A stretch of DNA of 38,016 nt from Nautiliaceae bacterium (GCA_027035735.1 JALVUH010000079.1:1-38016); one strand, 5' to 3'. Shown: positions 12,146-36,699, counted from the first letter of the stretch. Numbers and translations are program-made. The notes: generated by a model not told the origin, from the sequence alone.

Positions 12146-12196
12146 ACTTTACTTTTTGATTTTATTTTGATAAATTGCACTTAAAAAAGGCTAGAG

Positions 12197-13474: not shown

Positions 13475-13484
13475 AGGCTTTATT

Positions 13485-15526: not shown

Positions 15527-15920
15527 TTTAATGTTGTTAGTATCGTTTTTGTTTGCAGATTCAATTCATTGGATGAAAGATTATAAAAAGGCATTTGAGC
15601 TTGCAAAAAAAGAACACAAATTACTTTTTGTGGATATTTCTGTGCATCATTGTCCTCCTTGCTGGTATTTAGCAAATATTGTTTATAAATATCCTCCTGT
15701 TATTAAGTATATTAATAAACATTTTATTCCAATTTTTTATTATGCAGATACAGATAGAGTACCAATTGCATTTTCTCCTTATTTTACAGGTGCGGCTCCA
15801 AATGTATTGTTAATTACTCCTGATGACAAGCTATATTATAGGATCTTGGGTTCTCGTCCTGCTAAAATCTTTTTAGAAACAATTAAAAATATTAATCAAA
15901 AATATCAAAAAGGTAAATAA
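15507..15920 (+). CDS. periplasmic thioredoxin-fold protein with CPPC active site (paralog A)
   Basis: Signal peptide, then KEHKLLFVDISVHHCPPCWYL. Roughly 40-50% identical by eye to the 32013..32435 product. The TAATG junction overlaps ccdA by 1 nt. Confidence 0.8.
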   Translation: MKKLLVSLMLLVSFLFADSIHWMKDYKKAFELAKKEHKLLFVDISVHHCPPCWYLANIVYKYPPVIKYINKHFIPIFYYADTDRVPIAFSPYFTGAAPNVLLITPDDKLYYRILGSRPAKIFLETIKNINQKYQKGK

Positions 15921-16609: not shown

Positions 16610-16618
16610 AGGAGTAAT

Positions 16619-17472: not shown

Positions 17473-17503
17473 ATTATTTGAATCTTGCAAAAGGAGAAAA
17501 AAT

Positions 17504-17740
17504 ATGAAAAAATTTTTATCATTAGTGGCTTTTGGTGCTATGGCGTTTGCTTATCAAAATTGTGCAATGTGTCATAATGGTGGTATGGCAATTAAACTTG
17601 ACAAATTAACTCCTGCTCAAATTGAAGCAAAATTGAAAGAATTTAAAGCAGGAAAAGGTAATCCTATGATGGTTAATATCGCTAAAAGTATGAGCGATAA
17701 AGAAATAGCAGAAGCTGCTAAAAAATATGGGAAAAAATAA
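17504..17740 (+). CDS. small monohaem class I c-type cytochrome (c553-like)
   Basis: Signal peptide, a single CAMCH haem-binding motif near the mature N-terminus, and a candidate distal Met in GNPMMVNIA. About 60 aa mature. Confidence 0.8.
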   Translation: MKKFLSLVAFGAMAFAYQNCAMCHNGGMAIKLDKLTPAQIEAKLKEFKAGKGNPMMVNIAKSMSDKEIAEAAKKYGKK

Positions 17741-17759
17741 TTTCCCTTTTTATTTTTTT
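17729..17759 (+). terminator. rho-independent terminator of the cytochrome c gene
   Basis: GGGAAA (17729-17734) pairs with TTTCCC (17741-17746) around a 6-nt loop containing the stop codon. It is followed by TTTTTATTTTTTT. Confidence 0.65.
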
Positions 17760-17792
17760 AAAATTTTAGTGTCAAAGATTATTATTTAAAAT

Positions 17793-17812
17793 AAAAAAAG
17801 CCCAAAAAGGGC
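17793..17812 (-). terminator. weak rho-independent terminator of haoA
   Basis: The minus strand reads GCCC-TTTTT-GGGC followed by TTTTTTT, starting 8 nt after the haoA stop. The stem is only 4 bp, so confidence is low. Confidence 0.4.
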
Positions 17813-17819
17813 ATGAGAA

Positions 17820-19358
17820 TTATTCGTGAGTAACAACTGGCATTGGAGGTTCGTTTTCAAGAACTTTTTTAGCATCATGATATTTTTTATACATTTTCAT
17901 TCTGTAGTTGTAAATATCATTCATTTCTCTAATGTCTTGCATTACTTCAAATACACCGTGCCAGTGTGCATAATCTGGGCTTCCCATTGCTGCACCTTGT
18001 CTAAATCTTCTTCCTTCATGATGCCATAGATAATAATAAAGTTTGAAGAATGGATCGCTCCATACATCTGATCTTATTAAACCTCTTTCTTTTAAATCTT
18101 TCATCATTTTATTAGCGTAAGCTCTATATTCATTATATACTTTAACTGCTGCATCTACTCTTTGGAAATAGTTATTTACAAATGTTACTTCGTGACAAGT
18201 CATACATACTTTTTTCATTGCAGCTCTTGCTGCTTCAGGACCTGCAGGGTTACCAGTTTTTGGATTACCTCTAATTACAGTTTTACCACCTATAATTTTT
18301 CCTCCACCTTTCCAGAATGCCCAACCAGCAGTTTCATGTCCTCCAGTTCTTAAGAAGCTTTTTGGTGCCCAAAGATTCCATTTAAGTCTAAGTGATACGT
18401 TGTGAGTTGCTTTAAGACCATTAATTCCACTCATATGACATGTGAAACATGTAGGACCTCTTAAAGTTTTACCAGGGATTTGAGCTCCAGTATTAAAGTT
18501 ATAATCTTCATGATTTGTATCAAAAATATGTCCATGAACACTTGATTCGAATATTTCTTTATCTGGATGGTCTGGTCCTAAGTGACAGTTTGAACATGCT
18601 GCAGGTTGTCTAGCTTCAGCTGCAGAGAATTTATGTCTGCTATGACATGCTAAGCAGTTTCCAACACCTCCATCTGGATACAATGAAGCAATACCATCGT
18701 TTGGCCAAGTTGTAGGATCTGGAACTCCGTTTTTATCAAGTTTGATTGTTGTTCCGTGACATTGGATACAGGTATTTGCAACATTTAGGTTTGCAAGTCT
18801 TGGATTAGCTTGATTTGCTCTATAAAATTTTGAATCGTGTCTTATTCCTTTATCCATTTTTGTAGCACTAAATCCATTTAATGAAGGATTTTTTCCTTTT
18901 AAGCTTTCATAATTGTATGCAAGTTTACTCATAAGGAAACCATGTTTGCTACCATTAATAGCAAGCCATTGAGCACCACCTCTTGCGTGTCCAGAATTTA
19001 GATATTCAATAACTTCTTTTGCGTGACATTTTGCACAAGTTACAGATGAAACTGCGATTTGAACTGTCCAATTTGGTCCTTGATAAGGATGGTTTTTAAA
19101 TGCTGTTGGATAGTCTTTTGGTACTACGTGACATTGAACACAGCCAACTCCAGCTTTTGCATGTTTAGAATGTTCCCAGTCTGATACAATACCTGGGTCC
19201 ATAGTTTTGTGACACATTAGACATTGTTGATTACTTACACCTTTTGGGTGGAAGTTTTTAAGTTTTACATAGTTTGGATTTGAATCTAAGCTGTTTGCTG
19301 CAAATGCTGTTGAAGCGATTGCTGCAATGCTTAGTCCTGCTGTAAGTGTTTTTTTCAT
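17820..19358 (-). CDS. haoA: octahaem cytochrome c of the hydroxylamine oxidoreductase family (epsilon-Hao type, probable nitrite/hydroxylamine reductase)
   Basis: Sec signal peptide. Exactly eight CXXCH motifs (CLMCH, CVQCH, CAKCH, CIQCH, CLACH, CSNCH, CFTCH, CMTCH) and no CXXCK. The C-terminal helical region (WHHEGRRFRQGAAMGSPDYAHWHG) is Hao-like. The ATG at 19358, 5 nt after AGGAG, is preferred over the GTG at 19364 in the ORF track. Confidence 0.8.
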   Translation of the reverse strand: MKKTLTAGLSIAAIASTAFAANSLDSNPNYVKLKNFHPKGVSNQQCLMCHKTMDPGIVSDWEHSKHAKAGVGCVQCHVVPKDYPTAFKNHPYQGPNWTVQIAVSSVTCAKCHAKEVIEYLNSGHARGGAQWLAINGSKHGFLMSKLAYNYESLKGKNPSLNGFSATKMDKGIRHDSKFYRANQANPRLANLNVANTCIQCHGTTIKLDKNGVPDPTTWPNDGIASLYPDGGVGNCLACHSRHKFSAAEARQPAACSNCHLGPDHPDKEIFESSVHGHIFDTNHEDYNFNTGAQIPGKTLRGPTCFTCHMSGINGLKATHNVSLRLKWNLWAPKSFLRTGGHETAGWAFWKGGGKIIGGKTVIRGNPKTGNPAGPEAARAAMKKVCMTCHEVTFVNNYFQRVDAAVKVYNEYRAYANKMMKDLKERGLIRSDVWSDPFFKLYYYLWHHEGRRFRQGAAMGSPDYAHWHGVFEVMQDIREMNDIYNYRMKMYKKYHDAKKVLENEPPMPVVTHE

Positions 19359-19387
19359 TTTCACTCCTTTTTGACTATCTCTTTAAA

Positions 19388-19418
19388 ATTGTATTAAATT
19401 TATGTGTCTTAAAAGTGC
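19388..19418 (-). promoter_or_regulatory. putative haoA promoter: GCAC-N7-ACAC direct repeat, 10-nt gap, TACAAT -10
   Basis: Minus strand reads GGCACTTTTAAGACAC (19419->19404), ATAAATTTAA, then TACAAT (19393->19388). The -10 ends 30 nt before the ATG. It has the same architecture as the element at 31326..31356. Confidence 0.4.
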
Positions 19419-19443
19419 CAAAAGGAGTAAAGGTAGAAAATTT

Positions 19444-19788
19444 TTAATATTTTCCTTTAAGAGAGCCAAAGTAGTTAATTTCTTCTGCTTTTTTTTCTTT
19501 ATTAAGTTCTTCTACAGTTTTTTCAAAATCAATCTCTTCCATCATTTTATCTAACTCTTCTTCGCAGTAACTCATATGCATATCAGCACTTATTATATAA
19601 GGCATCTCTTCAATCTGTCTTAGTTTTTCTATTTCTTCTTCTACACATTCACCTTCAATTGTAATTATTATAATACCTCTTTTTTTATCTCCAAAATGAA
19701 CATCACAAAGTTCACTCTCTTGTAAATTTAGCCATACAGCATCATAATTTTCAGGTTTTGTTTTAACAATAATACTTGATATATTCAT
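19444..19788 (-). CDS. napD: NapD, NapA-specific chaperone
   Basis: Small acidic protein at the end of the nap operon. The preferred start is the ATG at 19788, which forms an ATGA overlap with the napL stop and follows AAAGGAG. The ORF-track start at 19809 is probably a spurious extension. Confidence 0.8.
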   Translation of the reverse strand: MNISSIIVKTKPENYDAVWLNLQESELCDVHFGDKKRGIIIITIEGECVEEEIEKLRQIEEMPYIISADMHMSYCEEELDKMMEEIDFEKTVEELNKEKKAEEINYFGSLKGKY

Positions 19789-20747
19789 TTTTTCTCCTTT
19801 AATTTCCAAATTATTATTTCACTTGGTGAATAACTAATTATTGTATTTTCATTTAAAAATTTCATATTAATAAGGGGCATTTGGTGACCTTTTAGTAAAA
19901 ATAGAGGTTTTCCATATATAGTTGAGACTAAAATATTATTATTTTCATCATATTGAAGTGCAAATTTATCTAATTTTGGAGATAGGGCTACTGCATAAGG
20001 CAAGAATTTATCATCCATTTTATAGACCATATTTTTTGTATTTATATCATATATAGCTACTCTTTTATCATCGCTTCCATTAATTACATAATTTTTTACA
20101 AAATCAAGAGCAATTGTTTTATTTTTATTGTATCCCATTAAATCTTCTATTTTTTTACCTGTTTGTGTATTTACAATATGTGCTACTCCGCTTTCATCTC
20201 CAATTACTGCTTTAGTCTTATTTTCATTAAGAGCAAATGTAGAAAATACATAATTTCCTATTTGATTATCATATAAAAATTTTTTGGTTTTTAGATTATA
20301 AAGTAAAACTTCATCACTTAAAAGAGCTAAAAAAATTTCATTATTATTAATATATCTTGCTTGCATAAATAATTTTTTTGATTGAAAATATTTAGTTATT
20401 TTTTTTGTTTTAAAATTATATATAGATAAAATTCTTGTAGCGTTTTCTCCTTGAGTTAAGATTAAAAGATTTTCACCATTTGGGGATATATCAAGTGAAT
20501 AAATCGGCATTGCCATTAAATTTCCCATAAAATCATGAATTTTTGGCAATGTTATTTCAGATAATTTTTTATTTGTTTTAAAATCATTAATTAAAATATG
20601 ACCATTTTCAAGTCCTACTATTAAATATTTTTTATTGAAAGCTACTTTTGAAATATAATAGTTATATCTATAAAATTTATAAGGTTTTAGTGTAGACAAT
20701 GAAAATGCAAATACTATACTCATTAATAATAAAAATAATTTTTTCAT
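19785..20747 (-). CDS. napL: NapL, periplasmic beta-propeller-like nitrate reductase accessory protein
   Basis: Signal peptide and repeated beta-strand blades (ISPNGENLLIL, DESGVAHIVNTQTGKKI). Its position between napF and napD is characteristic of epsilonproteobacterial napAGHBFLD. Confidence 0.75.
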   Translation of the reverse strand: MKKLFLLLMSIVFAFSLSTLKPYKFYRYNYYISKVAFNKKYLIVGLENGHILINDFKTNKKLSEITLPKIHDFMGNLMAMPIYSLDISPNGENLLILTQGENATRILSIYNFKTKKITKYFQSKKLFMQARYINNNEIFLALLSDEVLLYNLKTKKFLYDNQIGNYVFSTFALNENKTKAVIGDESGVAHIVNTQTGKKIEDLMGYNKNKTIALDFVKNYVINGSDDKRVAIYDINTKNMVYKMDDKFLPYAVALSPKLDKFALQYDENNNILVSTIYGKPLFLLKGHQMPLINMKFLNENTIISYSPSEIIIWKLKEKK

Positions 20748-20756
20748 TTTATCTCC

Positions 20757-21233
20757 TTAAACTATCTTCACTTCTATGGCATAAGTAGGACATACACTTA
20801 TACAAAATCCACAAGCTGTGCATTTATCTAAATCAATGATAGGGTTAAACATTCCTTTGTATATTATAGCATTTTCTTCGCATATATCTTGACAAGAAAA
20901 ACACATAGTTTGATTCCATGCAAGACAAGTTTTAGGATTTATTAAAAATTCAGCATTAAGTTTATTTTTTTTATTTTTTATATTTAATACATCTTTAGGA
21001 CAAGCGATTGCACATTCATCACAAAATGTACATCCGTTTATCCCAAATTTAATCGCTGGTTTTTCTTCTTCAATTTCAATAATTTTTTCAGGACATGCTT
21101 TTATGCAAGGTTTATCTTCACATTCAAGACACTTTAAAAAATCTTCTTTTTTTTCAAAATAGGGAGGATAAATAAAAGATTTAAAAGGAGAAGAGACTCT
21201 CCTAAAAAGATTTCTTTTGCTTTTGTCTATCAT
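20757..21233 (-). CDS. napF: NapF, cytoplasmic poly-ferredoxin
   Basis: Four Cys clusters (CLECEDKPCIKACP, CTFCDECAIACP, CFSCQDIC, CTACGFCISVCP). No signal peptide. ATGA overlap with napB. Confidence 0.85.
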   Translation of the reverse strand: MIDKSKRNLFRRVSSPFKSFIYPPYFEKKEDFLKCLECEDKPCIKACPEKIIEIEEEKPAIKFGINGCTFCDECAIACPKDVLNIKNKKNKLNAEFLINPKTCLAWNQTMCFSCQDICEENAIIYKGMFNPIIDLDKCTACGFCISVCPTYAIEVKIV

Positions 21234-21739
21234 TTCATTCCTACACTAGCTTTCATAGATTCAAATCTATTTTCAACTACAGGATTAAGTTTAGCTTGAG
21301 GAGCATGGCAAGTTGTACAGAAATATCTACTACCAGCTACTCTTCTCACATGTTTTCCATTTTCAAAATTATCAACAAAATGATCAGGTGGCATAGGAGT
21401 AACACCTAAAGCTTTTGCATTTTGTGGTAAGTGACAATTTAGACACATATTATTGTGAACAGTAATTGGAACCATACCTTTAATACTATGAGGAATCATT
21501 GGAGGTGCTGTTACATAAGAAGTTTTATAAAGTTTAACTTTTCCAGGAATTGGAGGTTGATTGTTATATTGAACAACAGGTAAATTTTGTGAATCTTTTT
21601 CAAGTCCAGCTTTTCTAATACCGGTGATTTTTACAGGCTTTTCTGAAACAGTATTATTATTTGCAGATGTCATTTTTTGATTACATCCAGTTAATAATAA
21701 AAGTGCAGTTGCTGCACTAATTAGAGCTATTTTTTTCAT
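21230..21739 (-). CDS. napB: NapB, dihaem cytochrome c subunit of periplasmic nitrate reductase
   Basis: Two CXXCH motifs (CLNCH, CTTCH) with typical NapB spacing. The N-terminal signal ends in a lipobox-like LLTGC. RBS AGGAG upstream. Confidence 0.88.
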   Translation of the reverse strand: MKKIALISAATALLLLTGCNQKMTSANNNTVSEKPVKITGIRKAGLEKDSQNLPVVQYNNQPPIPGKVKLYKTSYVTAPPMIPHSIKGMVPITVHNNMCLNCHLPQNAKALGVTPMPPDHFVDNFENGKHVRRVAGSRYFCTTCHAPQAKLNPVVENRFESMKASVGMK

Positions 21740-22562
21740 TTTTTTCTCCTTTTATAAAATTTCTAAGTGAAAATTTTAAAGCATTATCTTCACATACCTC
21801 AATACATCTTCCACAATTTGTACATTCTATTCCTGTAATATAATCATCTTTTTTATTAATTACAGGTCCTAAAACTTGAGCTTCTGGACATACCATGAAG
21901 CAATTTCCGCAGTTTGTGCAATTTTCTTTTGTATGATATACGCGGATTATATTTTTAGCTCCTATTAGGCTATACATTGCGCCTACAGGACAAATATGTC
22001 CACACCATCCATTTTTAAGAACAAATGCATCAAAAATAAAAATTACTAAAAGCCATACCCATCCAAATCCTAAAGTAAACGCAACTCCTCTTGTAAAAAT
22101 TCCTATAGGATTTATAAATTCATATGCTGCTGCACCTATAATTGTTGAAAAAATAAGCATTGCAATCAAAAATGCATATCTAAATTTTTTGATTTTCATT
22201 GCACTTACTAAGTTATCTTTTTCATGATGGGTTTTTCTTCTAACCCATGCAGCTAAATCTGTAATTAAATTTACAGGACATACCCAGCTACAATAAGCTC
22301 TTCCTCCAATAATTCCATAAAAAAGCAATACTACAATTAATCCAATAATCAAATTTGAACTAATTACAGCTCCTGCAAATAACATTTGTAAAAATGCATA
22401 AGGGTCAGTTAATGGAATAGTATTAAATAATTTTGAAAAACTTAAATTTCCAATTAATACTTTCCATCCATAATAATTTGCTCCAAAATATAAAAACAAA
22501 ATTAAAAATTGTGTAATACGTCTAAGGATAAGATATCTATTTTTTGTAATTAATTTAATCAT
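21717..22562 (-). CDS. napH: NapH, membrane quinol dehydrogenase subunit
   Basis: Four TM helices, two CX3CP motifs (CSWVCPVN, CGHICPVG), and a C-terminal 2x[4Fe-4S] region (CTNCGNCFMVCP, CTNCGRCIEVC). Confidence 0.9.
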   Translation of the reverse strand: MIKLITKNRYLILRRITQFLILFLYFGANYYGWKVLIGNLSFSKLFNTIPLTDPYAFLQMLFAGAVISSNLIIGLIVVLLFYGIIGGRAYCSWVCPVNLITDLAAWVRRKTHHEKDNLVSAMKIKKFRYAFLIAMLIFSTIIGAAAYEFINPIGIFTRGVAFTLGFGWVWLLVIFIFDAFVLKNGWCGHICPVGAMYSLIGAKNIIRVYHTKENCTNCGNCFMVCPEAQVLGPVINKKDDYITGIECTNCGRCIEVCEDNALKFSLRNFIKGEKNEKNSSN

Positions 22563-23370
22563 TCCAATTTACTCCCTGATTTAAGTTTTGAATAGGATTT
22601 TCGCTACTCCAAGGAGTTTTTGTTGTTGTTTTAGTGCTTGCATTTTTGACTCTTTGTTGGTCTTGTTTGCTCCATCCTTTGACGTATCTATTGCTAACTT
22701 TACCAAGAAATACTTCTCTTGGAAAGATTTTAATAGCTGGTTTTTCAGTAATACATGCCATTTCGCACATTCCACATCCTGTGCAATACTTTTCATGAAC
22801 TACAGGTATTCTGTAGGCATGTTCTCCTGTTCTTTCATTTGGTTTCCATTCAATTGTAATTGCTTTATCCATTTCAGGACATGCTCTATAACATGCAGTA
22901 CATTGCAATCCCCAAAATGCAATACAACTACTAGGATCAATTACAGCAACACCCATTTTAGCGTAATCAATTGCTACTTCGCCTTTATCATTTTGACACT
23001 CTTTTGGAGTTAATGCCCCTGTAGGGCAAGCATACATACAAGGAATATCATCGCACATAAAACATGGCCCTGTTCTTGGATGAAAAAATGGTGTCCCAAT
23101 AGGAGCATTATCTCCCGGTGCTGCTAAATACAAAGTATCTATCTCTTTTCCATTAATAATCATTTTATTCTCTCTATTTTTGCAAGCGTCAACACATAGA
23201 CCACATCTAATACATGTTTTTATGAATTCTTTTTCAGGTAAAGCACCTGGAGGTCTAAGTGCTAAAGGTTTATCTTTATTTTCCTCCGCAAATGCACTTG
23301 CAATAGCACCAGCAGCAGTCGCTGCTGCTGATAGCTGAATTAGATTATTAAGGAATGTTCTTCTATCCAA
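22555..23370 (-). CDS. napG: NapG, periplasmic (Tat-exported) poly-ferredoxin
   Basis: Twin-arginine signal MDRRTFL. Four Fe-S motifs (CIRCGLCVDAC, CFMCDDIPCMYACP, CTACYRACP, CTGCGMCEMAC). Confidence 0.9.
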   Translation of the reverse strand: MDRRTFLNNLIQLSAAATAAGAIASAFAEENKDKPLALRPPGALPEKEFIKTCIRCGLCVDACKNRENKMIINGKEIDTLYLAAPGDNAPIGTPFFHPRTGPCFMCDDIPCMYACPTGALTPKECQNDKGEVAIDYAKMGVAVIDPSSCIAFWGLQCTACYRACPEMDKAITIEWKPNERTGEHAYRIPVVHEKYCTGCGMCEMACITEKPAIKIFPREVFLGKVSNRYVKGWSKQDQQRVKNASTKTTTKTPWSSENPIQNLNQGVNWND

Positions 23371-23378
23371 AATATCTC

Positions 23379-26198
23379 CTATGCTTTATAAATTTTAACT
23401 GCTGATTTTTTATAATCTGTTTCTTTACTTAATGGACAAGTTGCATCAAGTGTACATTTATTAATTAATATTTTTTCATCAAACCATGGAAGCATTACAA
23501 GACCTCTTGGAGGTTTATTTCTACCTCTTGTTTCAATTCTTGCTTTAACTTTTCCTCTTCTAGATTCAATAACTACTAAATCAAATCTTTCAAGACCTAG
23601 CTCTTTTGCATCTTCAGGATTCATGTATAATAATGCTTCTGGCATTGCACGATATAATTCTGGAACTCTCATAGTCATAGTTCCTGTATGCCACTGTTCA
23701 AGAACTCTTCCTGTACATAGCCAGAATTTATATCCTTTTGTATCATATTTAGGATCTTCCGGATGCACCATAAACGGTCTCCAGAATATTTTTGCTTTAT
23801 TTGGTAATGGATATTTTTTATGAGTTTTAGGACCTTTTAAATCACCTTTTGGAATTGCTTTAAGAAGTGGTCCATAAAATGCAAATTTATCACCAGGTTT
23901 TGCATATTTTCTTGCATATGGGTCATAATTTACATTGAATCTCCATTTTGTTTCATGTCCATTTACTACTGGCCATCTAAGTCCTCTTACTTTTTGATAT
24001 GTATCAAAGTCTGCTAAATCATGACCTCTACCAAGACCAAATTTTCTATATTCTTCCCACATAGCTTTTTGGATAAAGAAACCATATCCTTTAAATACTT
24101 TACCATCACTTCCTACAACATTTCTGAAATCTCCCTCAGCTTCAGTATTTGGATGCATTCTACCGCCTTCATCTCTAGCAATTGGATCTGGCCATGGGAA
24201 ATTTTTGCGGTATTCTTCTCTATTAAATAATACATCAAATAATGTATCTTCTGGAGAATAACCCATTGCTTTTGCTTCTTCTAATACATCTGGTAAGACT
24301 GTTCCATCAGGAAGTTTCCATTCATGCCATACTTCTTTTAATTTAAATCTTTTAGCAAATTCTGTTAATTGCCATAAATCAGGCATTGCTTCACCAGGTG
24401 CTATTACTTGTTGTCTCCAATGTTGAGTTCTTCTCTCAGCATTACCATAAGCTCCCCATTTTTCATAAATCATAGCAGATGGCAATACTAAATCAGCTAC
24501 TCTTGGAGATACTCCTGGATAACAATCACTAACTACAATGAAGTTATCCATAGTTCTTGCTGCTTTTAACCAGTGATTTGCATTTGCTGTATCTTGCCAA
24601 GGGTTATTTACTTGAGCCCATACCCATTTTAAATTACCAGCTTCAAGTTCTCTCATCATTTTTACATAATGATATCCAACTTTTGGATTAATTGTTCCAT
24701 GAGGAATTTTCCATAATTTTTCTGCTATTCTTCTGTGTTTAGGATTTGCTACAAGTAAATCTGCTGGAAGTCTGTGAGCAAATGTTCCAACTTCTCTTGC
24801 AGTACCACAAGCACTAGGTTGACCTGTAAGAGAGAATGCTCCATTTCCAGGTTCTGATTGTTTTCCAAGAAGTAGATGAATCATATAAATTTGTTCATTA
24901 ACCCAGCTTCCTCTAACATGTTGGTTGAATCCCATTGTCCAGAAAGATATTATTTTTCTGTTTGGATCACAATATAAATCAGCTAATTTTTTAAGTTTTG
25001 CTTTAAAGCTTTCAAGTGATTCGTCTTTATCACCTTTTGCTACTTTTGCTACATAATCAAGTGTATATGGTTCAAGTCCTTTTTTGAATTCTTCAAATGT
25101 AATTTCCCAATGTTTGAATGGGCCTTTTCCATTGGCATGTTTCATATACATAATATCTCCGGCTTTCCATTTACCAATTGGGCTAAGTGCTATACCTTCT
25201 TCTTCTGTTACTACTTTTTCAACTTGTTTTTCTACAGTATCTTTTTCTTTTGGAGTTACATATGGTGAATTTGGATTTCTCATACCATATCCAATATCAG
25301 GGAAACCTGTTGCAAATACTGTGTATTTTTTAACAAAATCCCAATTTACTTTATTTCTATGAACAATTTCTCTTGCGATATAGTTCATAATTGCAAGGTC
25401 AGTATTTGGTCTAAAAATAATTTCCATATCTGCAAGGTTTGAACATCTGTTTCTGTAAGTTGAAAGGTTAACTATATAATATTTATCTGGATTATTTAGT
25501 TTTGCATCAGATACCCTTGCCCATAGAATAGGATGCATTTCTGCCATATTAGCACCCCAAGTAATAACAGTATCAGTAAGTTCAATATCATCATAACAAC
25601 CAGCTGGTTCATCAATTCCAAATGTTTGATAAAATCCAACAACTGCACTTGCCATACAGTGTCTTGCATTTGGATCTAAGTTATTACTTCTCCATCCAGC
25701 TTTTACTAATTTTTCTGCTACATAACCTTCTTCAATTGTATATTGACCCGAACCAAAGATACCTATTGATGTTGGTCCATATTTGTTATAGTATTTTTTA
25801 AATTGTCTTTCCATTTCATCAAATGCTCTTTTCCAGCTAACAGGTCTAAATGGAGCATTTTTATCAAATTCACCATTTTCATTTAATCTAAGTAACGGTT
25901 GAGTTAATCTATCAGCACCATACATAATTTTGGCATTAAAATAACCTTTAATACAGTTAATTCCTCTATTAACTGGATTTAGAGGGTCACCTTTTACTGC
26001 TACACATTTATTATCTTTTGTAGCAATCATAATACCACATCCAGTTCCACAAAATCTACAAACAGCTTTGTCCCAGTGCCAGCCTTGTTGAGCTTCTTCA
26101 GCTTGTGCTTTTGCATCTTCTGGGATAGATAATCCTACAGCGCTTGCTGCTGCAACTGCTGCGGTTGTTTTAAGAAAATCTCTTCTATTCATTGACAT
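23379..26198 (-). CDS. napA: periplasmic nitrate reductase catalytic subunit NapA (Mo-bisMGD, [4Fe-4S])
   Basis: Tat signal [21 protein letters not shown]-terminal cluster motif CRFCGTGCG. About 940-aa molybdopterin oxidoreductase with NapA-like sequence throughout. AGGAG lies 6 nt before the ATG. Confidence 0.96.
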
Positions 26199-26285
26199 AT
26201 TTCACTCCTTTTGGGATTTTAACAATATTATGATAACTCTTTTACAGTCTTTAAACAAGTTTTTAAGTTAAATTTAAGTAAAAAA

Positions 26286-26300
26286 GCACTTATAAGGCAC
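26286..26300 (+). promoter_or_regulatory. GCAC-N7-GCAC direct repeat in the napA/modA divergent region
   Basis: AGCACTTATAAGGCAC, with half-sites starting at 26286 and 26297 (11-bp spacing). It ends 10 nt upstream of the TTGACA -35 of the mod promoter and lies ~90-100 nt upstream of the napA ATG. Confidence 0.4.
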
Positions 26301-26310
26301 TTTTTTTAAA

Positions 26311-26339
26311 TTGACATTATTTTGAATTTAATATACAAT
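26311..26339 (+). promoter_or_regulatory. sigma-70-type promoter of the mod operon leader
   Basis: TTGACA (26311-26316), a 17-nt spacer, then TACAAT (26334-26339). The predicted TSS near 26346 gives a ~150-nt leader. Confidence 0.6.
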
Positions 26340-26345
26340 TATCAA

Positions 26346-26497
26346 AAAGGGTTTCGAGCTATATTTCCTAAGGCTTAAGCTATGGAGGTATAGCCGATAG
26401 GGTTTAATTTGAAAAAATTAAGCCTCCCGAGTTGGAAAGAAACCCTGCCTCCATAAAGGCTTTATTTCCACTCGGGAGAGCCTTTATGGAGGATAAA
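26346..26497 (+). promoter_or_regulatory. structured 5' leader, probable molybdenum-cofactor (Moco) riboswitch with an SD-sequestering helix
   Basis: Complementary segments: 26349-26355/26439-26445 (GGGTTTC/GAAACCC), 26371-26378/26418-26425 (AGGCTTAA/TTAAGCCT), hairpin 26379-26394, 26424-26431/26471-26478 (CTCCCGAG/CTCGGGAG). There is also a perfect 13-bp helix, 26448-26460/26480-26492 (CCTCCATAAAGGC/GCCTTTATGGAGG), that buries the modA GGAGG. Elements such as GCCUCCCGAG, GGAAAG and AAAGGC, and the position before modA, fit the Moco motif as I recall it. Confidence 0.55.
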
Positions 26498-27205
26498 ATG
26501 AAAAAATTTTTATTTTTTATTTTAAGTGTTAGTTTATTTGCTTCTCAAATATATGTAGCAGCTTCTGCTAATCTTACATATGTAATGCCAAGTATTGTTA
26601 AAGCTTTTAATAAAAAATATCCAAATATAAAAGTTAGATTTATAACTTCAAGTAGTGGTAAGCTTACAGCTCAAATTTTGAGAGGAGCTCCTTATGATAT
26701 TTTTTTATCTGCTAATATGAAATATCCAAAATTTCTTTATTCAAAAGGAATAGGGATTTTACCTCCTCAAATTTATGCAAGAGGGAAAATAGGTCTTTTT
26801 TCTCTTAAATATAAAAATTTATCGTTAAAAAATCTTTCAAATTATAAAACTATAGCCATTTCAAAACCTCAAACAACTCCTTATGGAAAAGCAGCGGTTG
26901 AAGCATTTAAAAATTCTAGTATTTATTCTAAAATAAAAGATAAATTAGTATATGCAGAAACAATTCCTGCTGTAATTTCTTATGTAAAAAATGGAGCTGA
27001 TGTGGGTGTTATAAGTAAATCTTTAATTTATTCAAATAATATAAAAAGAATGAAATTTTATTACAAAGATATAAATACATCACTTTATAAACCAATTAAT
27101 CAGGCCGAATTGTTAATTAGTAAAAATTTAGATGCTAAAAAATTTTATCAATTTTTATTAACGAATAAAGCAAGAAAAATATTTAAAAAATTTGGATATC
27201 AATGA
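26498..27205 (+). CDS. modA: molybdate ABC transporter periplasmic binding protein ModA
   Basis: The ATG at 26498 lies 5 nt after GGAGG. Signal peptide MKKFLFFILSVSLFA. Motifs AASANLTYVM and SSSGKLTAQI are typical of ModA. The ORF-track TTG start at 26432 lies inside the structured leader and is rejected. Confidence 0.88.
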   Translation: MKKFLFFILSVSLFASQIYVAASANLTYVMPSIVKAFNKKYPNIKVRFITSSSGKLTAQILRGAPYDIFLSANMKYPKFLYSKGIGILPPQIYARGKIGLFSLKYKNLSLKNLSNYKTIAISKPQTTPYGKAAVEAFKNSSIYSKIKDKLVYAETIPAVISYVKNGADVGVISKSLIYSNNIKRMKFYYKDINTSLYKPINQAELLISKNLDAKKFYQFLLTNKARKIFKKFGYQ

Positions 27206-27567
27206 ATATAATTATCTCAAAGTTAAAAAACATCAAAAGTTTAGATAATTTAAATTTATTGTATTTTGAAGAGGTAAAAGTTTTGATTTTACAAATGAAT
27301 TTAGATATTAAAATTAATCAAAAAGCAAAACTTTATATAAAACCTACAAAGCTTTTTTTAAGTAAAGAAAAGTGTGAATTTGAAAATAGATTAAAAGTTA
27401 ATATCAAAAATATAACAAAGGGAGAAATTTTAGCTTCTATTATATGTGAATATAAAAATTTTGAAATAGAAGTTATAATGCTAAAAGAGTGTATAAATTT
27501 TGAAAATGAAGCATATTTATATTTTAAAGCAAGTGATATTTCTATTGTAGAGGTAATAAATGATTGA
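27202..27567 (+). CDS. stand-alone TOBE/Mop-like (molybdate-binding fold) protein
   Basis: 121 aa, ATGA overlap with modA. The C-terminal half (NRLKVNIKNITKGEILASIICEYKNFEIEVIMLKE...AYLYFKASDISI) resembles a TOBE beta-barrel. I recall a gene in the same slot of the Campylobacter mod locus. Confidence 0.55.
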   Translation: MNIIISKLKNIKSLDNLNLLYFEEVKVLILQMNLDIKINQKAKLYIKPTKLFLSKEKCEFENRLKVNIKNITKGEILASIICEYKNFEIEVIMLKECINFENEAYLYFKASDISIVEVIND

Positions 27568-28237
27568 TTTTACTCCTTTTATTTTATCTTTTAAGTTAGC
27601 TTTTATAGTAACATTGATTTTACTTTTTATAGGTATTCCATATGCATGGTATCTTTCAAATACAAAATCAAAAATCAAACCTTTTTTAGAGACTATTACC
27701 GCTCTTCCTATAGTATTACCTCCTTCTGTTTTAGGGTTTTATTTACTTGTATTTTTATCTCCTGATTCTTTTTTGGGAGGAGTGGTGTATAAATTATTTC
27801 ATTTAAAATTGGTTTTTTCTTTTCCAGGGCTTGTAGTAGCAAGTAGTATTTACTCTTTTCCTTTTATGATTCAGCCTATTCAGAGTGGATTTGATACGTT
27901 AAATAAAAATATTATTGAAGCTTCTTATCTTAGTGGAAAGAGTAGATTAACTACACTTTTTAAAGTTATATTGCCAAATATAAAATCTTCACTTCTTACG
28001 GCGATTGTTATTACATTTGCTCATACTATAGGAGAATTTGGAGTAGTTTTAATGGTTGGAGGATCAATTCCAGGTAAAACAGAGGTTGCTAGTGTGGCAA
28101 TTTATGATTATGTTGAAAATTTAGATTATCATTCAGCTCATATATATAGTGCAATTTTACTTATAATTAGTTTTTTGGTGTTGTTTTTTGTATATTTTAT
28201 AAATCATAATCAAAGAAAGAGATATGATTTATATTAA
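27560..28237 (+). CDS. modB: molybdate ABC transporter permease ModB
   Basis: Five TM helices with the EAA-type loop (IIEASYLSGKSRLTTLFKVILP). Confidence 0.9.
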   Translation: MIDFTPFILSFKLAFIVTLILLFIGIPYAWYLSNTKSKIKPFLETITALPIVLPPSVLGFYLLVFLSPDSFLGGVVYKLFHLKLVFSFPGLVVASSIYSFPFMIQPIQSGFDTLNKNIIEASYLSGKSRLTTLFKVILPNIKSSLLTAIVITFAHTIGEFGVVLMVGGSIPGKTEVASVAIYDYVENLDYHSAHIYSAILLIISFLVLFFVYFINHNQRKRYDLY

Positions 28238-29096
28238 TGTTAGAAAAAAGTTAAGTGGTGTAATTGAAAATATGGAGTTGGAATTTAAATTAAATATTAA
28301 AAAAGGGGAGTTTTTAGCAATTATAGGAGAGAGTGGTAGTGGAAAAACTACACTTCTTAGAATTATTGCAGGCCTTGAAAAAAGTGAAGGTGAAATAATA
28401 GTAGATAAAGAAATATGGCAAAATGAAAAAATTTTTTTACCTCCTCAAAAAAGAGAAATTGGATTTGTTTTTCAAGATTTTGCGCTTTTTCCTAATATGA
28501 ATGTTTTAGAAAATTTATTATATGTAAAAAATGATAAAGATTTAGCTAATCATTTATTAAAAATTAGTGGTATAGAAAATTTAAAAAATAGATATCCAAA
28601 TACTCTTAGTGGAGGTCAAAAACAAAGAGTAGCACTTGCTAGAGCTTTGATGAGAAAGCCTAAAATTTTGCTTTTAGATGAACCTTTTTCTGCACTTGAT
28701 GAGAAAAGAAGAGAAGATTTACAAGATAGATTATATTTTTTTCATAAAGAATTTGATTTAACTACAATAATGGTTAGTCATTCTTCAAGTGAAGTATATA
28801 AATTAGCAGATAATTTGGTAGAATTAAATTATGGAAAAATAAAAAGATATGGAAATGCTAAAAAACTTTTGATAAATTCAAAAACAAGTGAAAAATTTAC
28901 AATAAGAGGAAAGCTTATTGATATAATAAAAGCAGATATTATAAATATTGCAGTAGTGAGTGTGGGGAATAATATTATTGAATGTGTAATATCTCAAAAT
29001 GAAGCAAAAAATTTAAAAATTGGAGATAATGTAATACTTTCAACGAAAGCATTTCATCCAAATATAAGGGTTATTAATGAGAATATTATTAGTTGA
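28224..29096 (+). CDS. modC: molybdate ABC transporter ATPase ModC with C-terminal TOBE domain
   Basis: Walker A GESGSGKTT, signature LSGGQKQRVALARAL, Walker B LLLDEPFSALD, and a C-terminal TOBE-like beta domain (FTIRGKLIDII...IGDNVILSTKAFHPNI). Confidence 0.9.
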   Translation: MIYINVRKKLSGVIENMELEFKLNIKKGEFLAIIGESGSGKTTLLRIIAGLEKSEGEIIVDKEIWQNEKIFLPPQKREIGFVFQDFALFPNMNVLENLLYVKNDKDLANHLLKISGIENLKNRYPNTLSGGQKQRVALARALMRKPKILLLDEPFSALDEKRREDLQDRLYFFHKEFDLTTIMVSHSSSEVYKLADNLVELNYGKIKRYGNAKKLLINSKTSEKFTIRGKLIDIIKADIINIAVVSVGNNIIECVISQNEAKNLKIGDNVILSTKAFHPNIRVINENIIS

Positions 29097-29727
29097 AGAT
29101 GATGAGTTTATTGGTGAATCAATAAAAGAGTATTTAGAGATGCAAGATAATAGGGTAGATTACTATTCTTCTCCAATAAAAGCATTAGAAGAAGTATATC
29201 CAGATCATTATGATATTTTTTTATTGGATATCAATATGCCAGAGATGAATGGATATGAACTTTACAAAGAACTTAAAAATTATGCAAAAGATGTGCCAGT
29301 TATTTTTATAACTGCTTATTCAGATATAGATCATGTAGAAAAAGCATTTGATTTAGGAGCTGCTGATTATATAAAAAAACCATTTGAGCTTAAAGAGCTT
29401 GAACTTAGAATTAAAAGACTTGTTTTTAAAAATACAAATGAAATTAAGATTACACAAAATTATAAATTTGACTTAGATAAATTGAAACTTTTTTATAAAG
29501 ATGAAGAGGTTGATTTAACTCAGAATGAAAAATATTTTCTTGAAATGCTTGTTAAAAATATAGGGCAAGTAGTGGAGCTTGAGAGACTTAAAGATTATGT
29601 ATGGGATGGAAAAGATATTTGTAATAATACAATAAGAACTCAAGTTAAAAAATTAAGAAATAAATTACATGAAAATTTCATTAAAAATATAAGAGGTATT
29701 GGATATAAGATTGAGAAGTTCAAGTGA
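29077..29727 (+). CDS. OmpR/PhoB-family response regulator
   Basis: Receiver domain (ILLVEDDE..., phospho-acceptor in DIFLLDINMPEMNG, conserved K in YIKKPF). C-terminal winged-helix DNA-binding domain (TIRTQVKKLRNKL...IRGIGYKI). The start overlaps modC by 20 nt. Confidence 0.9.
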   Translation: MRILLVEDDEFIGESIKEYLEMQDNRVDYYSSPIKALEEVYPDHYDIFLLDINMPEMNGYELYKELKNYAKDVPVIFITAYSDIDHVEKAFDLGAADYIKKPFELKELELRIKRLVFKNTNEIKITQNYKFDLDKLKLFYKDEEVDLTQNEKYFLEMLVKNIGQVVELERLKDYVWDGKDICNNTIRTQVKKLRNKLHENFIKNIRGIGYKIEKFK

Positions 29728-31336
29728 TTTTAAATTTGATTTAACGTTTGCCTTTGTTATTTTTGCTTTTGTAATTATTGTGATTACTACTTATACTTCA
29801 ATTTATATGTTTACAAGACTTACTACTCAAGAATTTGAAGATAAAATTAAAATTTTGGCTGAAAATATTTATTTGAACTATAAAGCAAAAGAAAATATTA
29901 TAAAAAATACAACTTTAGCTCTTGCTAAAAATGATATTTTTAATTCTACTTTTACTCCTAATGATGCTATTTTAAAATCTGTATTCAAAACAATGCTTTA
30001 TGCTAATAGTGATTTGATTCAAATAGATTATTTTAATAATTATGGAAAAAATATTATTTCTTGTAAAAAGATAAACGGAACAATATATTGTGGAAGTTCA
30101 GATAAATTTTTGAAGGTTGAAAACTTTAAAAGTGATAAAAATATTTTTTTTCAAGAAAAATTTAAAAATAATGCTATAGAATTTATTGCGTTTGCGCCTG
30201 TAAAAATAGAAAAATTCCCAGGATTTATTGAAGTAAAGGCATTAATTAAAGGATTATTTAGAAATAATAATTTTTATCATTTTATTATAATAGATAAAAA
30301 TGGAAATATTTTATTATCAGATGTTTATAAATATAAAAATTTGAATGATATATTTAGTTATTTTTTAAATAAAAAAATTTTAAAAACTAATGAAGGTTTT
30401 GTCACAGAAGGAATATATATTAAAAAATTAAATAATAAAATTAAAATGATTTTTATACAAAATAAAAATCTTATAAATAAAACAAACGAAATTTCAAAAA
30501 CTCTTACTGTTATTATGATAATTTTATCTATTTTTTTTGCTATTCCTCTTGGAATGTTTTTTTCAAGACCTTTATATACTTTTTATCAAGAGTTGGATAG
30601 AAGAGTAAAAGAAGAAATTGAAAAAAGACAAGAAAAAGAACAATTGCTTATTGCTCAAAGTAAGTTAGCAGCATTGGGTGAAATGTTAGGAAATATAGCA
30701 CATCAATGGAGACATCCATTAACTAGATTATCTCTTTTAATTCAAAATTTTGAACTTGCGGCAAGCAAAAATAGATTAACTCCTGAATTTATTGAAAAAT
30801 TTAAGACTCAAGCTAATGCTCAAATTCAATATATGTCTCAAACAATTGATGATTTTACTAATTTTTTTAAAAAAGATACAAAAAAGGTAGAATTCTGTCC
30901 AAAAGAGATAATAGAAGAAGCTTTAAAATTAATTGAGGGGAGACTTAAACAAAATAGAGTAGAAGTTAAGTTGGATTTTATAAAAACAGAATCTATTGTG
31001 GGATACAAAAGTGAATTTTCACAAGTAATATTAAATATTCTTAATAATGCCATTGATGTATTAAAAGAAAGAGATATTAAAAATAGAAAAATTTGGATTA
31101 GAATTAATGGTAAAAAAATAGAAATAGAAGATAATGCGGGAGGAATTCCAGAAGAGATAAAAGATAAAATATTTGAACCATATTTCACTACTAAATTCCA
31201 ATCTCAAGGTACAGGTATTGGACTTTATATGAGTAAAGTTATTATTAATCAACATTTTAATGGAGAACTTTATGCATATAATTCTAAAAATGGAGCTGTT
31301 TTTGTAATAGATTTATCTAAAAAAAGCACTTTTTAA
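29699..31336 (+). CDS. sensor histidine kinase with a ~220-aa periplasmic domain
   Basis: TM1 (FAFVIFAFVIIVITTYTSIYMF), a periplasmic domain, and TM2 (LTVIMIILSIFFAIPLGMFF). H-box NIAHQWRHPL, N-box ILNNAIDV, G boxes EDNAGGIP and GTGIGLYMS. TTG start at 29699 or 29711; either overlaps the regulator gene. Confidence 0.88.
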   Translation: MDIRLRSSSDFKFDLTFAFVIFAFVIIVITTYTSIYMFTRLTTQEFEDKIKILAENIYLNYKAKENIIKNTTLALAKNDIFNSTFTPNDAILKSVFKTMLYANSDLIQIDYFNNYGKNIISCKKINGTIYCGSSDKFLKVENFKSDKNIFFQEKFKNNAIEFIAFAPVKIEKFPGFIEVKALIKGLFRNNNFYHFIIIDKNGNILLSDVYKYKNLNDIFSYFLNKKILKTNEGFVTEGIYIKKLNNKIKMIFIQNKNLINKTNEISKTLTVIMIILSIFFAIPLGMFFSRPLYTFYQELDRRVKEEIEKRQEKEQLLIAQSKLAALGEMLGNIAHQWRHPLTRLSLLIQNFELAASKNRLTPEFIEKFKTQANAQIQYMSQTIDDFTNFFKKDTKKVEFCPKEIIEEALKLIEGRLKQNRVEVKLDFIKTESIVGYKSEFSQVILNILNNAIDVLKERDIKNRKIWIRINGKKIEIEDNAGGIPEEIKDKIFEPYFTTKFQSQGTGIGLYMSKVIINQHFNGELYAYNSKNGAVFVIDLSKKSTF

Positions 31337-31356
31337 GCACACTATCTATTTATAAT
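31326..31356 (+). promoter_or_regulatory. putative promoter of the NapC/NrfH-type cytochrome gene: GCAC-N7-GCAC direct repeat, 10-nt gap, TATAAT
   Basis: AGCACTTTTTAAGCAC (half-sites at 31326 and 31337), ACTATCTATT, then TATAAT (31351-31356). The -10 ends 25 nt before the ATG at 31381. The first half-site lies in the last codons of the kinase gene. Confidence 0.45.
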
Positions 31357-31380
31357 ACAAATTAAAAAAAGGTAAAGCTT

Positions 31381-31938
31381 ATGGCAAGTAAAAAAGCTAT
31401 TTGGGGTTCTCTAATTTGTGGCGTTATTATTGGGCTTGGGTTGGCTTATGTAGCTGCAGTAGCAGTAGAAGAGACTGGAAAACCTGAATTTTGTATGAGC
31501 TGTCATGAAATGAAGCCAATGGCAGAAACTTTTGAAATTAGTGTTCATGGAGGTAATAATCCTCAAGGATTTGCTGCAACTGAATGTACCGATTGTCATT
31601 TACCGCACAATTCAATTGCTGGATATTTAGTAATGAAAGGTATTAGCGGGACAAGAGATTTTCTAGCTCATATTGGATTAATTCACAAAGTAGATTTTAA
31701 AGAAAATTTCAATGAAATGCAAAATTATGTATATGATAGTGCATGTTTAAAATGTCATAAAGGTATAAGAGATCCTGAACATGCAATAGGACTTAGTGAA
31801 AATATTAAAAAAATACATGAAGAGTTTTATTGGAAACCAAAAAATGAAGGACAAAATGTTAGCTGTGTAGAATGTCATAATGACAGAATAATGACTCATT
31901 TTGCTCATCCTAATCTTTTAGAAGTTCTTTCTGAATAA
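31381..31938 (+). CDS. membrane-anchored tetrahaem cytochrome c, NapC/NirT/NrfH family (candidate quinol dehydrogenase partner of epsilon-Hao)
   Basis: N-terminal TM anchor (IWGSLICGVIIGLGLAYVAAVAV). Four CXXCH motifs (CMSCH, CTDCH, CLKCH, CVECH). 185 aa, typical of the family. Confidence 0.88.
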   Translation: MASKKAIWGSLICGVIIGLGLAYVAAVAVEETGKPEFCMSCHEMKPMAETFEISVHGGNNPQGFAATECTDCHLPHNSIAGYLVMKGISGTRDFLAHIGLIHKVDFKENFNEMQNYVYDSACLKCHKGIRDPEHAIGLSENIKKIHEEFYWKPKNEGQNVSCVECHNDRIMTHFAHPNLLEVLSE

Positions 31939-31984
31939 TTTTCTTCTTTTTTTTCTTTTTTTTGTAAATTTAGCATTAAATTTA

Positions 31985-31993
31985 TGTTAAAAT
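31985..31993 (+). promoter_or_regulatory. extended -10 element (TGtTAAAAT) upstream of the thioredoxin-like/ccsBA genes
   Basis: TGTTAAAAT lies 20 nt upstream of the ATG at 32013, after a long T-rich tract. Confidence 0.3.
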
Positions 31994-32012
31994 ACCTAAA
32001 AAAAGGGTAACC

Positions 32013-32435
32013 ATGAAAAAAATGTTGTTATTTTTAGTGGGTGTAGTGTTTGCATTTGCTTTTGATTGGAGTGGGAAAGTAGATTGGGCTATTAGTTATA
32101 ATACTGCAAAAATGATTGCTCAAAAAGAGCATAAGTTAGTAATGGTAGATATTTCTTTATCGCATTGTCCTCCGTGTAGATATTTAGCTTCTCAAGTTTA
32201 TAGTAATGATAAAGTAGCAAATTATATTAATTCTCATTTTATTCCTGTATTTTATTTGGCTGATAGAGATAATATCCCTGTTGAAGTTCAGGCATATTTT
32301 ACAGGTTCAACTCCTACAATTTTATTTATCAAACCAAATGGAGAACTTTATAGAGAAATAATCGGTGCTAGACCTCCACAAGTATTTTTAAAAGGATTAG
32401 AAGAAATATATAATAGTTATGAAGGTAAAAAATGA
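32013..32435 (+). CDS. periplasmic thioredoxin-fold protein with CPPC active site (paralog B)
   Basis: Signal peptide, then KEHKLVMVDISLSHCPPCRYL. Collinear similarity to 15507..15920 (shared HFIP-FY-AD, YFTG, P--L-I-P, G-RP). 4-nt overlap with ccsBA. Confidence 0.8.
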   Translation: MKKMLLFLVGVVFAFAFDWSGKVDWAISYNTAKMIAQKEHKLVMVDISLSHCPPCRYLASQVYSNDKVANYINSHFIPVFYLADRDNIPVEVQAYFTGSTPTILFIKPNGELYREIIGARPPQVFLKGLEEIYNSYEGKK

Positions 32436-35424: not shown

Positions 35425-35426
35425 AT

Positions 35427-36686: not shown

Positions 36687-36699
36687 TTAAGGAGAAAAA

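Follow-up and report, generated by a model that had tools for sequence, protein, structure and literature searches.

A conserved direct repeat of 11-bp period at the nap, hao and cycB promoters of Nautiliaceae, a probable operator of the OmpR-type two-component system encoded beside them

What switches on nitrate ammonification in the Nautiliaceae? Members of this family (Caminibacter, Lebetimonas, Nautilia) are plentiful among the primary producers of deep-sea vents, and their conversion of nitrate to ammonium follows an unusual path in which hydroxylamine oxidoreductase runs in reverse. When Nautilia profundicola grows on nitrate its napA, haoA and cycB transcripts rise 4.6-, 8.5- and 7.1-fold, an induction for which that study names no regulator (PMC3701875). 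Two reviews likewise name no regulator for nitrate induction in Nautiliaceae (PMC8139620, PMC12285233). Here we analyse a stretch of 38,016 nt from an uncultured vent bacterium of the Nautiliaceae (JALVUH010000079.1:1-38016; hereafter the window), with 28% G+C and an intergenic share of 4.5%. It carries the nap operon, hao and a gene for a NapC/NrfH-type cytochrome (cycB), together with genes for an OmpR-family response regulator and a sensor histidine kinase. The original prediction was that three copies of a direct repeat, GCAC-N7-RCAC (S1, S2 and S3), form a shared operator of this co-located regulator. That core inference is strongly supported: the repeat keeps its position and phase at eleven S1 loci and, among the sites listed, at 38 distinct hao and cycB sites. 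We consider it likely that S1-S3 are operators for the phosphorylated OmpR/PhoB-type regulator, partnered by a double-Cache kinase.

The sites and the genes they concern are given below. Gene assignments were made with NCBIfam and Pfam, and they confirm the earlier gene map (hao, napAGHBFLD, modABC, OmpR-type regulator, histidine kinase, NapC/NrfH cytochrome).

17820-19364, minus strand: hao, octahaem hydroxylamine-oxidoreductase-type cytochrome c (Pfam Multi-haem_cyto, Cytochrome_C554); proposed target
19388-19393, minus strand: hao -10 hexamer TACAAT, exactly 10 nt downstream of S3
19418 to 19404, minus strand: S3, GCACTTTTAAGACAC, operator-like direct repeat in the napD-hao intergenic region (hao promoter); exact match
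19444-26198, minus strand: napAGHBFLD, periplasmic nitrate reductase operon (NCBIfam equivalogs NapA, NapG, NapH; matches to NapB, NapF, NapD); proposed target
26227-26235, minus strand: nap -10 box TATCATAAT, 28 nt upstream of the napA ATG; conserved
26286-26300, plus strand: S1, GCACTTATAAGGCAC, direct repeat, inverted relative to nap; exact match
29077-29727, plus strand: OmpR/PhoB-family response regulator (Response_reg and Trans_reg_C); proposed binder of S1-S3
29699-31336, plus strand: sensor histidine kinase (Pfam HisKA and HATPase)
31326-31340, plus strand: S2, GCACTTTTTAAGCAC, direct repeat in the NapC/NrfH (cycB) promoter; exact match, overlapping the kinase stop codon
31351-31356, plus strand: cycB -10 hexamer TATAAT, exactly 10 nt downstream of S2
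31381-31938, plus strand: cycB, NapC/NrfH/cM552-type tetrahaem cytochrome (PF03264 Cytochrom_NNT); proposed target

All three elements stand where they had been placed, on the predicted strands. They are also the only ones. Searching both strands of the window for GCAC-N7-RCAC returns exactly three matches, S1, S2 and S3, every one of them in intergenic DNA, against a mean of 0.18 in dinucleotide-preserving shuffles; three or more were reached in 0 of 100 shuffles. One supporting argument needs correcting, namely that GC-containing tetramers are rare here: GCAC alone is not very rare, occurring 107 times on the two strands, and the rare thing is the phased pair. Two copies at 12177 and 34516, previously taken for isolated half-sites, are indeed solitary. 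With its constant preceding purine the motif resolves into two 11-bp units (RGCACTTTTWR RCAC...), and the half-sites start 11 bp apart in 22/22 genome and metagenome-assembled-genome (MAG) sites. S2 extends into the 3' end of the kinase gene, where it overlaps the final four codons and the stop; this overlap, also pointed out in the prediction, is real in the window and peculiar to this genome, being absent from the relatives' loci.

Is the repeat kept in relatives? A protein-guided scan of one genome per species yielded three syntenic Nautiliaceae MAG loci (L001-L003, regulator 81-82% identical). A protein search added orthologues at 76-83% identity in four cultured genomes, those of Caminibacter mediatlanticus TB-2, C. 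profundus, Lebetimonas natsushimae and Lebetimonas sp. JH369, which were compared over 20-kb loci (L083-L086) with the gene order of the window. At all seven loci the motif and its phase are kept at the orthologous places upstream of nap, hao and the NapC/NrfH gene while the flanks have diverged. The sole exception is S3 of C. profundus, which has two sites only; this accords with the absence of hao after its napD. We then scored sites with a position weight matrix (built from 21 sites; threshold 21.5 bits; operator consensus RGCACTTTTWRRCAC). In about 170 kb of Nautiliaceae loci 22 matches reach the threshold, all at the three promoters, and the window holds no further site beyond S1-S3. In the loci of other Campylobacterota and of other phyla (1.09 Mb), fetched only because they encode a regulator homologue, none reaches it. 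From the matrix one learns the background rate and that additional sites are lacking.

The hao and cycB promoters share a single architecture. The predicted 10-nt gaps from S2 to TATAAT (31351-31356) and from S3 to TACAAT (19393 to 19388) are correct, and they are conserved. At cycB the motif is followed by exactly 10 nt and an invariant TATAAT in 7/7 genome and MAG loci; at hao it is followed by exactly 10 nt and TATAAT, TACAAT, TAAAAT or TAGAAT, again in 7/7. All 14 S2- and S3-type sites therefore have a 10-nt gap to TAnAAT, and the pho-box-like geometry that had been proposed for these two promoters holds. It is the motif that fills the -35 position, and ACTTTT, the hexamer standing 17 nt before the -10, agrees with TTGACA at 0 of 6 positions. 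S3 is kept at the same place in L001, L002, L003, L083, L085 and L086, and S2 in L002, L003 and L083-L086. Among the matches listed, S3-type motifs precede hao in 16 metagenome contigs and S2-type motifs precede the NapC/NrfH gene in 12.

The two promoters differ in detail. Among the sites listed, the second unit is ACAC in 21/21 distinct hao sites and GCAC in 12/17 distinct cycB sites, with GACAC at cycB in a lineage whose regulator is 68-74% identical to that of the window; the base 5' to the motif is usually G at hao, usually A at cycB. In alignments of the napD-hao spacers and of the kinase-cycB spacers, what stays invariant is GCACTTTT, the second unit's CAC, the greater part of the -10 hexamer and a portion of the ribosome-binding region. 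The remaining spacer sequence has diverged. Another short sequence, AAAGAG (19379-19384, minus strand), is found 4-9 nt past the hao -10, near the point where transcription is expected to begin, and is kept in most hao promoters examined, most metagenome contigs included.

S1 has a different placement. It lies between two divergent operons, nap and mod. As predicted, S1 adjoins the mod -35: 10 nt separate it from the TTGACA of the promoter at 26311-26339. This adjacency is not conserved. On the plus strand S1 is followed by the mod -35 after 10 nt in the window and after about 45-60 nt in L001 and L002, and directly by a Shine-Dalgarno sequence in C. mediatlanticus (that of modA) and in L003 (that of the regulator gene). 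In L003, L085 and L086 the mod operon is absent altogether, and all three retain S1. By contrast, the distance from S1 to a conserved TATCATAAT-like nap box is 50 nt in the window and 51 nt in ten other loci (11/11 loci), with S1 upstream of the box and inverted when read on the nap strand. Because the distance to nap is fixed and the distances to mod and to the regulator gene vary, we conclude that S1 serves nap, and we reject mod as a conserved member of the regulon. Three metagenome contigs (L113, L116, L172) were found with a search pattern for S2 and S3, yet they carry S1 at the constant distance from nap. The pattern excluded S1, and so these contigs are independent confirmation.

If TATCAT is the nap -10, S1 would span about -63 to -77; this -10 is supported by its conservation and by the leader of about 24 nt that would result, a plausible length. 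In Lebetimonas sp. JH369 the site is doubled: the GCAC unit occurs four times upstream of nap, always in exact 11-bp phase (L086 9920-9956). Several nap accessory genes and hao look fragmented in the JH369 assembly (frameshifts or pseudogenes). A further arrangement occurs in a lineage of 42% G+C (L120 2999-4306), where napA is transcribed away from the genes for a kinase and a regulator (65% identical). The motif here faces nap from a class-II position, with TATAAT following after 10 nt and the start of napA after 41 nt; S1 of the window, by contrast, is distal and inverted.

How far does the motif extend beyond these genomes? A metagenome search with the pattern RGCACTTT-N3-RRCAC-N10-TANAAT gave at least 120 matching loci, which we classified by the first downstream gene. 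Among the matches listed that gene is hao at 16 sites, cycB at 12, napA at one (L120) and a multihaem cytochrome c of about 780 residues at nine, of which L168 is a frameshifted fragment. About 30 of the at least 120 matches belong to a repeated gut-bacterium sequence and were set aside, as was the rest, isolated matches mostly with no open reading frame called downstream, which we take as chance matches. Wherever hao and cycB contigs reach far enough, regulator and/or kinase genes are adjacent. This includes layouts without nap. In one such layout, seen in full in L139 and L140, hao and its motif are divergent from a run of small monohaem cytochrome c, regulator and kinase genes, which leads to a second motif and then to cycB, ccsBA, hemA and hemE; L089, L143 and L152 show the hao-regulator part only. 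The small monohaem cytochrome c gene (about 76-80 residues, CxxCH) lies immediately upstream of the regulator gene in L139 (1430-1910) and also in L004 (4786-5016). The predicted local regulon under this two-component system thus stands for nap, hao and the NapC/NrfH gene. It does not stand for mod, and it is not a private local circuit, since the same element recurs in other layouts and at another multihaem cytochrome.

This other cytochrome links motif and regulator subfamily independently. Motif, 10-nt gap and -10 precede it in L114, L138, L183, L188, L190, L199, L200 and L205, and in the first five of these it is flanked by a regulator 44-52% identical to that of the window. The flanking regulators share the recognition-helix pattern NT[IL]RT[QKRH][VI][KR]K[LI]R, which in the window reads NTIRTQVKKLR. 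The cytochrome is distantly ExtM-like (ExtM is its best family match, below the family cut-off), and in L183 and L199 it is followed by the haem lyase gene ccsBA. We considered whether it might be the sulfite reductase MccA and rejected this: a search for PDB sequences returned no match, and the best family match is the sub-threshold one to ExtM.

Recognition helix and motif go together. GCACTT-N5-NCAC is found in 23 of the 24 loci whose regulator has the helix pattern, 13 of the 24 having been retrieved by a search that itself contained the motif. The exception is L004, with a regulator 70% identical and the same recognition helix and no motif in 6.9 kb. Regulator homologues at 31-44% identity have other recognition-helix sequences, for example ANIRVQINKLR. 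Among the 75 loci selected by regulator and lacking the pattern (1.09 Mb), seven have a single loose match; by hand estimate chance would give about two at 28% G+C and more in richer genomes, so that seven is near the chance rate. The motif consistently accompanies this regulator subfamily. Because the L183 paralogue shares helix and motif while its kinase is only 29% identical to that of the window, operator specificity appears to be kept while the sensor differs.

Both proteins are canonical in their make-up. The regulator consists of a receiver domain (PF00072, E 2e-29) and a Trans_reg_C winged helix (PF00486, E 3e-15), with the acidic pocket EDD, D51 and K101 and full-length similarity to solved OmpR-family regulators; its orthologues in Caminibacter and Lebetimonas lie in the same synteny, that of C. 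mediatlanticus at L083 10001-10648. Its NCBIfam matches to PhoB fall far below the cut-off. The kinase has PF00512 HisKA and PF02518 HATPase domains, an H-box HQWRHPL and no HAMP domain, and its two transmembrane helices flank about 225 periplasmic residues, roughly 40-265. The pair is kept in all related loci. An AlphaFold2 model of kinase residues 5-304 reached a mean confidence (pLDDT) of 79.7 from a shallow six-sequence alignment, shallow because a homologue search with the sensor domain gave only five proteins. In a Foldseek comparison the model matches double-Cache (dCache) domains of kinases and chemoreceptors (E down to 1.8e-8, TM score about 0.6). The periplasmic domain is therefore predicted to be dCache-like, unlike the four-helix sensor of NarX and NarQ.

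These observations suggest a mechanism. The kinase would sense nitrate, nitrite or a related periplasmic signal, nitrate or nitrite being likely, and the phosphorylated regulator would bind the repeat head-to-tail as a dimer on one face of the helix. Each site is a tandem of two 11-bp units RGCACTTTTWR (four in one relative), which fits such a dimer. At hao and cycB the bound dimer would replace the -35 element and recruit RNA polymerase through sigma region 4, as PhoB does; at nap, activation would come from the distal, inverted site. Nap, the nitrite-reducing enzyme Hao and its quinol-oxidising partner would then be induced together. CycB as the probable quinol-side partner of Hao follows PMC2628731 and PMC3701875. 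We infer the binding of the regulator to the sites, the activation and the identity of the signal. In N. profundicola nap is NAMH_0556-0553 and cycB is NAMH_0559 (PMC3701875), and from this published numbering alone two genes would lie between nap and cycB, an arrangement as in L003, L085 and L086. No Nautilia protein is among the homologues listed for the regulator or for Hao.

Could the repeat have another meaning? It is scarcely credible that it is a chance likeness within AT-rich intergenic DNA. The window offers only three short sites, and at 28% G+C spacers rich in T and A are expected; but no shuffle matched the count, and position, phase and spacing are kept across genera and dozens of metagenome contigs whose flanks have diverged, so that the comparative data refute this idea. 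Very improbable, too, is a sigma-54 (-24/-12) promoter. The sequences TGGCAC-N5-TTGC and tGGCAC-N6-GCAc resemble each other, and a G in the 5' flank creates GG-N10-GC at 8/9 sites of the ExtM-like cytochrome (among the matches listed) and at a few S1 and S2 sites. Among the sites listed, however, the equivalent of -13/-12 is GC in 0/21 hao sites (it is always AC) and GG stands at -25/-24 in only 2/17 cycB sites, counts that contradict a sigma-54 promoter and on which we rejected it. Nor would it explain the sigma-70-type -10 hexamer kept exactly 10 nt downstream, the CAC of the second unit, the four in-phase units of JH369 or S1 facing away from nap, and the cluster encodes no NtrC-type enhancer-binding protein.

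Two further explanations accept a genuine operator. In one, another protein encoded elsewhere, such as a global nitrogen or redox regulator, binds it, and the local two-component system controls something else. All the evidence tying regulator to motif is by association, and L004 has a close homologue of the regulator with no motif nearby. We nevertheless regard an unlinked binder as unlikely: regulator and kinase adjoin the motif in every contig long enough, across at least four gene layouts; a paralogous regulator with the same recognition helix lies beside the same motif at an unrelated gene; and a tandem repeat of 11-bp period is the signature of OmpR/PhoB winged-helix dimers. The three promoters lack a Crp/Fnr-type palindrome. 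An operator of this type (NssR) was rejected, as TTGA-N6-TCAA has three matches in the window against 2.6 expected, all in coding DNA and none in the promoters. Alternatively, the same regulator might be a repressor at hao and cycB that occludes the -35 region and is released on induction. S2 and S3 do overlap the -35 position, and in two loci, those of C. mediatlanticus and L003, a TGn-extended -10 precedes S1 and a Shine-Dalgarno sequence follows it, a place where a bound protein would block read-through. We think repression quite improbable. Occlusion needs no fixed spacing, whereas the invariant 10-nt gap (14/14) matches the activating geometry of a pho box (PMC4971064); ACTTTT leaves no -35-like hexamer to occlude; the constant placement of S1 51 nt upstream of nap, on one face of the helix, is typical of activation; and PceP sites of the same layout have been interpreted as activating (PMC7755780).

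We return to S1-S3 as operators through which the local regulator activates, and to the points that weigh against this. The association between regulator and motif is correlative, and a site in the -35 region could repress rather than activate. Campylobacterota promoters often have no canonical -35 anyway. L004 encodes the regulator with no motif nearby, although on so short a contig this is uninformative rather than contradictory. The 22 positives of the matrix are partly circular, as it was trained on the same sites; the scans covered loci rather than whole genomes, so that sites elsewhere or a global distribution are possible. The nap -10 is a candidate supported by conservation. The modelled dCache fold gives no clue to the ligand, and we know of no nitrate-binding dCache domain. 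Finally, in the window the regulator and kinase are probably expressed from a mod transcript that a riboswitch controls, a complication for any simple nitrate switch.

That last point follows from the genes between S1 and S2, given here with the other features of the region.

26311-26339, plus strand: mod promoter TTGACA-17-TACAAT, the best sigma-70-like match in 17500-32600 (11/12)
26340-26458, plus strand: molybdenum cofactor (Moco) riboswitch (Rfam RF01055, 77.8 bits), between the mod promoter and modA
26432-29096, plus strand: modA, a 121-residue open reading frame, modB, modC
Downstream of cycB, plus strand: thioredoxin-like gene, ccsBA, yjdM, hemA, hemE

The first 20 nt of the regulator gene (29077-29096) are also the last 20 nt of modC, and the kinase gene starts (29699) before the regulator gene ends (29727). 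Because the riboswitch leads modA and the regulator gene overlaps modC, the two-component genes are probably co-transcribed with the mod operon in the window. The riboswitch is present in L001 and L002 and absent from Caminibacter (L083, L084), L113, L116 and L172.

Downstream of cycB, an extended -10 (TGtTAAAAT, 31985-31993, plus strand) lies in the 74-nt gap before the thioredoxin-like gene. Because of it, the genes from there through ccsBA and yjdM to hemA and hemE may have a promoter of their own rather than depend on S2; a terminator scan gave no deciding result, and we do not claim the haem-biosynthesis and ccsBA genes as members of the S2 operon. The segments 12197-17461 and 32013-37725 are dense in genes for haem synthesis and cytochrome c maturation (protoporphyrinogen oxidase, two thioredoxin-like proteins, a DsbD/CcdA-like membrane protein, ccsBA, hemA, hemE), and in relatives hemB, hemC and hemN follow in this neighbourhood. 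Such density fits the high haem demand of Hao, CycB and NapB. Hao itself has its closest relatives outside Nautiliaceae in sequences labelled Geopsychrobacter, Desulfobacterales or 'Deltaproteobacteria' (65-69% identity), and the Hao proteins of Campylobacter, Helicobacter and Arcobacter are about 44-48% identical to that of the window. This pattern hints at horizontal transfer of this hao type.

What has been gained is a testable circuit for nitrate ammonification, made up of an operator whose consensus is defined, promoters of three architectures, and candidates for the regulator and the sensor, both of which are present in the cultured and sequenced C. mediatlanticus TB-2 and L. natsushimae. 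The motif can be used to annotate this regulon in vent metagenomes. There is also a hint that within one regulator subfamily a single operator is employed again and again, at several multihaem-cytochrome systems. A bolder version of this idea is conceivable, and we offer it tentatively: the dCache domain would be a new sensor of nitrate, nitrite or hydroxylamine and, with its OmpR-type partner, the master switch of the reverse-HURM pathway (Nap, Hao and CycB) in Nautiliaceae, and the system would be one branch of a wider Campylobacterota regulator subfamily in which the operator (GCACTTT repeats, 10 nt ahead of the -10) stays the same and the sensor domain is exchanged, so as to control different multihaem-cytochrome respiratory modules.

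How does this system compare with known ones? The nearest parallel in mechanism is PhoB and the pho box of the E. coli phosphate regulon. In a pho box the -35 gives way to two repeats of 7 bp with AT spacers of 4 bp (PMC4971064). Both systems have an OmpR/PhoB-family regulator and direct repeats of 11-bp period with a conserved core and an AT-rich spacer; the -35 is replaced here at hao and cycB, likewise at a fixed short distance to the -10, and arrays of more than two units occur in both (PMC4971064). The core differs, however, GCACTTT here as against CTGTCAT, and so do the targets, which are respiratory nitrogen genes (nap, hao, cycB) rather than the pst and pho genes of phosphate acquisition. 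PhoR has no periplasmic sensor, whereas the kinase here is predicted to have a large one (about 225 residues, double-Cache), and the distal, inverted S1 departs from the pho-box layout.

Within the Campylobacterota, OmpR-type systems that adjoin and control a respiratory module have precedents. MccR/MccS of Wolinella succinogenes, for sulfite respiration, is reportedly one of them. Another is PceP/PceS (TCS2) of Sulfurospirillum, which lies inside the tetrachloroethene-respiration region that it controls; PceP has direct-repeat sites over the -35 box or about 50 bp further upstream, at several transcription units, the same two-position logic as S2 and S3 versus S1 (PMC7755780). It differs in its motif (CTATW-N17-CTATW), a kinase with seven transmembrane helices, its tetrachloroethene signal and its regulon, and PceP binding was shown by electrophoretic mobility shift assay (PMC7755780), whereas binding here is predicted from sequence. 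SulR/SulS of Sulfurimonas adjoins and controls the periplasmic sox module, and SulR too binds two direct repeats (PMC12936845); these are TTACA-type, and signals and targets differ.

In its proposed role, which is to switch on nap together with the machinery for nitrite reduction in response to nitrate or nitrite, the system resembles NarXL/NarQP and the Crp/Fnr-type Nss regulators (PMC8139620, PMC12285233), the latter being the only ones cited in nitrate-control reviews, for Wolinella and Campylobacter (PMC8139620). Its parts are different. The regulator is OmpR-type and has no NarL/LuxR-type helix-turn-helix, the modelled sensor is a dCache domain and not the four-helix, P-box sensor of NarX, and the operator is an 11-bp direct repeat, unlike the NarL heptamer (7-2-7) sites or the Nss palindrome TTGA-N6-TCAA. 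Full-text literature searches found no description of this regulon or motif, in line with the prediction of an uncharacterised circuit. Systems of this kind are well known, with an OmpR-type regulator and its kinase encoded next to the respiratory genes that they control and an operator made of direct repeats. The regulon itself appears to be new, and comparative genomics supports it solidly.

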